Source of the DNA: Escherichia coli | GTDB lineage: Bacteria; Pseudomonadota; Gammaproteobacteria; Enterobacterales; Enterobacteriaceae | Assembly (NCBI RefSeq): GCF_003334255.1 | Contig: NZ_QOWU01000024.1 | Length of the DNA: 64,000 nucleotides | Strand: one strand, 5' to 3' | Part shown: positions 30,664 through 30,753 of the stretch, piece after piece | Layout: each line of letters begins with the position of its first letter | Numbering within the stretch: the stretch's first letter is position 1 | Notes under the pieces: model-generated | Told to the model about the DNA's origin: nothing | What the model saw: the letters and a program-made list of their open reading frames with translations, nothing else | Databases searched by the model: none | Translations under genes and position numbers: made by a program

Positions 30664-30753
30664 TCAGGAGTGGTTTTCGAGGTAAAGGACAGCCATGACG
30701 ATAATCGCCGCCATAATCAGAAATCCTATCAGGATGTAAAATGCTTCTGCCAT
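30664..30753 (-). CDS. Candidate small hydrophobic protein (29 aa), unverified
   Basis: Internal ATG (cat at 30751-30753) within the 62-codon minus-strand ORF gives MAEAFYILIGFLIMAAIIVMAVLYLENHS, a single predicted transmembrane helix; weak GGGA upstream. Confidence 0.25.
   Translation of the reverse strand: MAEAFYILIGFLIMAAIIVMAVLYLENHS

Follow-up and report, generated by a model that had tools for sequence, protein, structure and literature searches.

What does the interval between ybdR and rnk of Escherichia coli encode, and, if it encodes a protein, what might that protein do? The DNA analyzed, referred to here as the window, is a stretch of 64,000 nucleotides from contig NZ_QOWU01000024.1. 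In it, ybdR, which the ORF list and the annotation identify as the gene of a zinc-dependent alcohol dehydrogenase, occupies positions 29422 to 30660 of the plus strand, and rnk, annotated as nucleoside diphosphate kinase regulator, occupies positions 30891 to 31301 of the minus strand. From the end of ybdR at 30660 to the rnk stop at 30891 the gap measures 230 bp, the size given in the initial annotation, which had drawn attention to a hydrophobic minus-strand ORF of 29 codons that starts there at an internal ATG. Translation of positions 30664 to 30753 on the minus strand bears this reading out, giving MAEAFYILIGFLIMAAIIVMAVLYLENHS followed by a TGA stop; the ATG is internal to a longer minus-strand ORF of 62 codons (30664-30852). 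The peptide is laid out as a polar N-terminus, M-A-E, a hydrophobic helix from about residue 4 to residue 25, and a tail, E26-N-H-S. The stretch of about 22 hydrophobic residues, unbroken from E3 to E26, points to a location in the membrane, where the product would be a small protein with a single transmembrane (TM) helix.

The upstream neighbor of the small ORF is rnk, on the same strand, with its stop codon 137 nt upstream of the ATG in the window, while ybdR is oriented convergently. The TGA stop of ybdR (30658-30660) and the stop codon of the small ORF (30664-30666, minus strand) are 3 nt apart, without a terminator between them, and hence the 3′ ends of the two convergent transcripts must overlap. 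Six nucleotides upstream of the ATG lies the sequence GTGGGA (30760-30765, minus strand), which reads as a Shine-Dalgarno-like element and presumably functions as one. In an alignment of the spacers from 35 loci a purine-rich GGGGA or GGAA block is located at the same spot.

The ORF at 30664-30753 is yldA, an already named and catalogued E. coli gene. The RefSeq CDS yldA, "small membrane protein YldA" (WP_000796528.1), of a K-12-type genome matches it base for base, and a 401-nt query across the gap finds matches in 5423 of 5426 complete E. coli genomes, with ybdR, yldA and rnk as the annotated features. The exact peptide is UniProt YLDA_ECOLI and is found on more than 1000 contigs. It is recognized by two dedicated models, both aligned over positions 1-29 of 29: the NCBIfam equivalog NF041476, "small membrane protein YldA", with 57.9 bits against a cutoff of 45, and Pfam PF23689, 'YldA-like', with 72.8 bits when the 33-aa form was the query. 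The initial annotation had held that nothing else was assigned to the gap and had not recognized the ORF as a named gene; both statements have to be given up, since RefSeq places yldA at exactly these coordinates and the name is backed by NCBIfam and Pfam models of its own.

The 29-amino acid sequence is also identical to an entry in Table 1 of VanOrsdel et al. 2018 (Proteomics 18:1700064, PMC6001520), and the published K-12 protein and the window ORF agree in their 29 residues, in their position between ybdR and rnk and in their strand, with no difference between them. In that work an SPA tag was placed at the 3′ end of 80 chromosomal small ORFs and the products were followed by immunoblot in LB, in exponential and stationary phase; chromosomally tagged YldA was detected. 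The SPA tagging that had been proposed for this locus was therefore already in print in 2018, and from this literature we take it that YldA is made from its own chromosomal locus in LB. YldA is absent from the 13 proteins of the same study that were also positive by tetracycline ribosome profiling. The value of the locus as a discovery is slight: the name and the detection of the product both date from 2018, and the gene has entries in RefSeq, UniProt, NCBIfam and Pfam; what the case shows is that a genuine small membrane protein gene can be recognized from the raw sequence.

The gene is not annotated uniformly. In some RefSeq genomes PGAP calls, in place of yldA, a 16-aa 'hypothetical protein' (WP_349809465.1) whose start is the internal Met14. 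Such calls were seen at two of the loci compared, L003 (705-755) and L084 (404-454), equivalent to positions 30664-30714 of the window. In L003 the full 29-codon yldA ORF is intact despite the shorter call; in L084 there is a length difference of 1 nt in the matched stretch, alongside a ybdR CDS that extends over the yldA ORF. The 16-aa call is an inconsistency of annotation and no biological difference.

Is the protein itself maintained by selection? With Rnk as anchor, 80 rnk loci were collected, one genome per species, and all their small ORFs were searched with a YldA profile. An ATG ORF of exactly 29 codons is found on the rnk strand in 34 of the 80 loci, usually about 140 nt, and up to about 310 nt, downstream of the rnk stop. 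The carriers are Escherichia including E. albertii, Citrobacter koseri, C. amalonaticus, C. sedlakii and related strains, many Enterobacter, Lelliottia, Leclercia, Pseudenterobacter and Phytobacter. Together with the window these loci provide 35 distinct sequences of 90 nt, on which the codon-level conservation check suggested for the ORF was run. Mean entropy at codon positions 1, 2 and 3 is 0.66, 0.48 and 1.17, and the pooled Nei-Gojobori pN/pS in the sense frame is 0.37, with synonymous sites differing at pS = 0.61. The sense frame is open in all 35 sequences, and each of the other five is interrupted in 13 or more of them. Four of these five have a pN/pS of 1.06-1.56; the value of 0.51 in the remaining one, an antisense frame, is most simply read as a side effect of the selection that acts on the sense codons. 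These data show purifying selection on the YldA protein in several genera of the Enterobacteriaceae, and that the ORF is far more than a product of chance. Codon-level conservation and the published tagged product (PMC6001520) together uphold the proposal of a genuine gene for a small membrane protein with, as predicted, a single TM helix.

Among the 35 sequences M1, E3, A21, V22, L25 and E26 are invariant, and the consensus reads M-[SN]-E-x-L-x-I-T-L-x-[FY]-L-I-x-x-A-I-I-V-x-A-V-L-Y-L-E-R-H-W. Most orthologs carry Arg at position 27; the K-12 allele, ending in ENHS, is without the Arg/Trp tail of the majority. The alignment also settles the choice of start codon in favor of the ATG originally selected, because the 29-codon ORF is the conserved unit while the in-frame extension upstream of it varies from 8 to 114 codons; for the same reason the longer 62-codon version of the gene was rejected. 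A gene on the antisense strand was rejected as well, no antisense frame being open in more than 22 of the 35 sequences.

The remaining 46 of the 80 rnk loci have no yldA ORF, among them those of Salmonella, the C. freundii group, Kluyvera, Kosakonia, Trabulsiella and some Enterobacter. Two Enterobacter loci retain scars. In E. cloacae DSM 26481 (L034, ~2973-3011) only a 3′ remnant is present (..AAVLSLKRHR and stop), and in E. hormaechei subsp. hoffmannii (L041, ~3040-3070) the Shine-Dalgarno block gtgccgtggggacg is kept while the ORF is deleted, the block being fused directly to the ybdR 3′ region. As far as the sequences tell, these are recent and independent losses of yldA. An nhmmer search for remnants in the loci lacking the gene gave one clear scar, that of L034, the other matches being weak and probably due to chance. 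Given this repeated loss of the gene, yldA is dispensable, whatever its role. Its presence is not tied to that of ybdR: both occur together in K-12 and Enterobacter, yldA occurs without ybdR in E. albertii and several Citrobacter, and ybdR occurs without yldA in Salmonella, so that the two genes are independent of each other. The constant neighbor of yldA is the 3′ end of rnk.

Within E. coli itself the locus exists in two forms. The full 401-nt K-12-type query, comprising the ybdR 3′ end, yldA and the rnk 3′ end, is matched in 3601 of the 5423 genomes, and in about 1822 the match is restricted to the rnk end. The one genome of the latter kind that was examined (L002, 3707-4061) lacks ybdR and carries a second yldA allele between uspG and rnk, and by extension from this one genome about one third of E. 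coli genomes would have the second allele and no ybdR. The second allele, MSEALGITAFYIFIAAIIVAAVLYLEQRW (WP_001287361.1), has 57% DNA identity and 52% protein identity with the K-12 allele and scores 59 bits on the NCBIfam YldA model, above the cutoff of 45. Both alleles keep the 29 codons and the core AAIIV.AVLYLE and have different tails, ENHS in the K-12 allele, which is the type present in the window, and EQRW in the second. The rnk sequence that flanks the second allele is about 99% identical to that of the window, and the break on the rnk side comes directly after the rnk terminator (window interval compared, 29202-30835). Alleles of the second type are found in E. albertii, E. marmotae and the cryptic Escherichia clades, and the K-12 allele is closer to the C. 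amalonaticus type. This distribution suggests that the ybdR-yldA segment is the result of an old replacement or of a horizontal acquisition.

What YldA may do is best approached through its likeness to another small protein, YoaI. The curated YoaI model NF041475, an equivalog with a cutoff of 45 bits, gives the two E. coli YldA alleles 22.5 and 30 bits and the Enterobacter-type protein 26.9; the best YldA score, 30 bits, being below the cutoff, YldA is not classed as YoaI. In the opposite direction YoaI scores 18.9 bits on an HMM built from the 35 YldA sequences; the YoaI sequence used aligns end to end with the YoaI model, at 79.8 bits. Since hydrophobic helices inflate such scores, the match was put to several controls. 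On the YldA HMM the 18.9 bits are reached neither in 3000 full shuffles nor in 3000 shuffles of the TM core (maximum 17.7), 16 other E. coli single-TM small proteins score 4.2 bits or less, and ten TM-core shuffles of YldA have no match to either curated model at E <= 10.

For a comparison of profiles 23 representatives of the YoaI family were gathered and the 17 full-length ones were aligned. Against the YldA alignment, hhalign pairs YldA 2-28 with YoaI 7-33 over 27 columns, with a score of 39.6, E of 3.8e-10 and a probability of 96.7%, a figure to be read with caution, since short TM profiles easily show false similarity and 3 of 400 shuffles still obtain a probability of at least 90%, at lower scores. 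In these shuffles the TM-core columns of YoaI were permuted with both Glu columns fixed, and none of the 400 reach a score of 39.4 (mean 13.2, sd 3.4, maximum 30.2, z 7.7); the reversed profile scores 12.4. The similarity thus goes beyond TM composition and argues for homology at the level of the family, and the profile comparison gives good support to YldA being a distant paralog of YoaI. The relationship is apparently undescribed as far as we have seen in the literature and the curated family libraries searched; a search for a Pfam family matching YoaI found none.

YoaI is a 34-aa small protein of the inner membrane, transcribed under PhoB control. According to Vellappan et al. 2025 (PMC11429745; Sci Signal 18:eadu7253), a two-hybrid assay shows it to bind the sensor kinase EnvZ, and EnvZ-OmpR reporters are activated by it. 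Its residues S26, V27 and E31 are invariant in 57 orthologs; E31 is located in the cytoplasmic tail, and the changes E31A and E31Q abolish both binding and activation of EnvZ, leaving membrane localization unaffected. Neither "paralog" nor "homolog" occurs in the text of that paper, and YldA is absent from its main text, including the table of 17 small proteins induced by low Mg2+. In the hhalign register S26, V27 and E31 of YoaI align with A21, V22 and E26 of YldA, all three invariant, so that V27 and E31 are matched and S26 is replaced by Ala. Each of the two proteins is a single TM helix with an invariant Glu on either side, at the same spacing, and they have in common the sequence E-x-L-x-I-T near the N-terminus and [S/A]-V-L-x-L-E-[R/K] at the C-terminus. 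They differ in that YldA is without the 5-residue N-terminal extension of YoaI (the MNDxM or MNDxMF segment) and without its SS motif, has Ala at position 21 where Ser is invariant in YoaI, lies in a different genomic context and has no reported induction by low Mg2+ or PhoB. With a score below the YoaI cutoff and with these N-terminal and SS segments missing, YldA is not an ortholog of YoaI. Column by column, the conservation of YldA correlates weakly with that of YoaI (r = 0.23, p = 0.12). The idea of one packing face on the YldA helix was dropped, its conservation moment in the helical-face test not being significant (p = 0.71); the same test gives p = 0.009 for YoaI.

No report of a function, a phenotype or a partner of YldA was found in the literature searched. 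We regard with considerable confidence, as the overall explanation of the locus, that this is the real and catalogued yldA gene, kept by selection, whose product is a distant paralog of YoaI and would act by binding a partner. In the model that we propose, YldA would insert into the inner membrane with its N-terminus out and its C-terminus in, as YoaI does, and would bind a larger protein of that membrane, contact being made by Glu26 and by the half of the helix nearer the cytoplasm; on the analogy with YoaI, we consider this insertion and mode of binding somewhat probable. The segment E26-x-x-x would be the cytoplasmic tail, by homology to YoaI, and the Arg27 of most orthologs fits such a location. 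Among possible partners a sensor histidine kinase comes first, whether EnvZ, the target of YoaI, or some other kinase, and even so we put this identification forward tentatively. More speculative still is the complete proposition, that YldA and YoaI form one family, defined by a helix bracketed by two Glu and the [S/A]VLxLE[R/K] motif, in which YldA tunes a sensor kinase through Glu26. If this were true, YldA would be a second small-protein connector between signaling systems in E. coli, one lost in many of the enterobacterial lineages sampled and present as two sharply divergent alleles in E. coli. As a useful by-product, the comparison provides a concrete hypothesis for YldA, a protein that keeps the Glu required by YoaI for binding to its kinase.

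A partner of a different class must also be considered. YldA might serve a transporter or another non-kinase membrane complex as accessory subunit or as modulator, its likeness to YoaI reflecting common descent without a shared class of target, a reading that we hold to be possible and no stronger than that. Most characterized E. coli single-TM small proteins are bound to transporters or enzyme complexes, examples being AcrZ with AcrB, KdpF with KdpABC, MgtS with MgtA and PitA, and CydX with cytochrome bd. Kinase binders are one class among several in a recent review (PMC12648545). In YldA the conserved positions cluster toward the C-terminal end of the helix, in its second half, and not on one face as in YoaI, which suggests a different mode of interaction. 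In the same direction, a transcriptome study of fluoride and anaerobiosis has yldA among the tabulated genes whose expression NaF raises, and the up-regulated cluster of that study, which rises with the dose, includes genes of osmotic and envelope stress. Set against this, no transporter or complex gene is consistently adjacent to yldA, whose neighbors rnk, ybdR or uspG all encode soluble proteins, and the only family-level relative of known function, YoaI, is a kinase activator. Nor is any kinship visible with the known accessory proteins: AcrZ, KdpF, MgtS and CydX are at 4.2 bits or less against the YldA profile. These proteins, and MgrB with its partner PhoQ, are like YldA in general architecture and size, and by analogy they probably share with it the logic of modulating a larger membrane protein by packing of helices, but they have no detectable sequence relationship with it (4.2 bits or less on the profile); MgrB, moreover, acts via a periplasmic domain, and YldA has no such domain.

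Two further explanations would dispense with a partner altogether. That YldA is a hydrophobic peptide of the type I toxin kind, repressed by antisense RNA from the convergent ybdR transcript, could be thought of for so short and so hydrophobic a product whose stop codon is 3 nt from that of ybdR. Overlapping transcripts have been reported, ExcludonFinder classifying ybdR-yldA as a convergent excludon in at least 50% of RNA-seq samples (PMC12288877), and overexpression of the relative YoaI leads to a long lag phase (PMC11429745). We nevertheless judge this very improbable, since tagged YldA accumulates in LB cultures that grow normally (PMC6001520) and yldA is without ybdR in E. albertii, several Citrobacter species and, by the estimate above, about one third of E. 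coli genomes. No dedicated cis-encoded antisense antitoxin was found, the sole antisense candidate being the 3′ end of the ybdR transcript, and an Rfam search of 29000-32500 at E <= 1 returned only the rnk leader and no family of antitoxin or other small RNA. Type I toxin loci are typically repeated or mobile, and yldA is a single-copy gene that keeps its synteny with rnk. Two polar residues, E3 and E26, never vary, which also points to a specific interaction and not to disruption of the membrane. It could be argued, finally, that the ORF is translated into a functionless peptide, affecting at most the stability of the rnk and ybdR 3′ ends, or is annotation noise, given its absence from 46 of the 80 rnk loci, the deletion scars that show its dispensability and the silence of the literature searched on a phenotype. 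We find this hardly credible: an ORF with a purely regulatory role would not constrain its amino acids as observed, with a pN/pS of 0.37, a fixed length and six invariant residues in the face of the synonymous divergence, and the detectable homology to YoaI, a functional small protein, speaks against it too.

Between rnk and yldA lies the rnk terminator hairpin (30836-30857, minus strand), AGAGGATGC-ACTC-GCATCCTCT, followed by TTTAC. As a pair of arms, GAGGATGC...GCATCCTCTTTCC, the hairpin is preserved in essentially all of the 80 rnk loci, whether they carry yldA or not; in the window, at 30836-30857, it has the form GAGGATGC...GCATCCTCT with a weak T-tract next to it. This weak U-tract leaves open a read-through from rnk into yldA. 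By consensus scan and spacer alignment no convincing sigma-70 promoter was found upstream of yldA, the sole promoter-like match being inside the CDS, and inspection by eye of the rnk-yldA spacer gave no convincing PhoB, PhoP or OmpR box. The gene would then be expressed either by read-through of the weak rnk terminator or from a promoter of its own, and in strains of the K-12 type it may be subject to antisense action by the convergent ybdR transcript.

Two blocks are conserved in the spacer (30767-30835, minus strand) across the 35 loci, TCACCC at about 75 nt and TTAATC.GTTT at about 25-35 nt upstream of the yldA ATG, and they may represent a promoter or a regulatory element of yldA. On the other side of rnk, upstream of the gene, the Rfam family rnk_leader (RF01771), a known cis-regulatory leader, is matched over its full length at 31347-31455 (minus strand) with 124.9 bits against a gathering score of 50, and a terminator-like hairpin is contained within it at 31384-31356.
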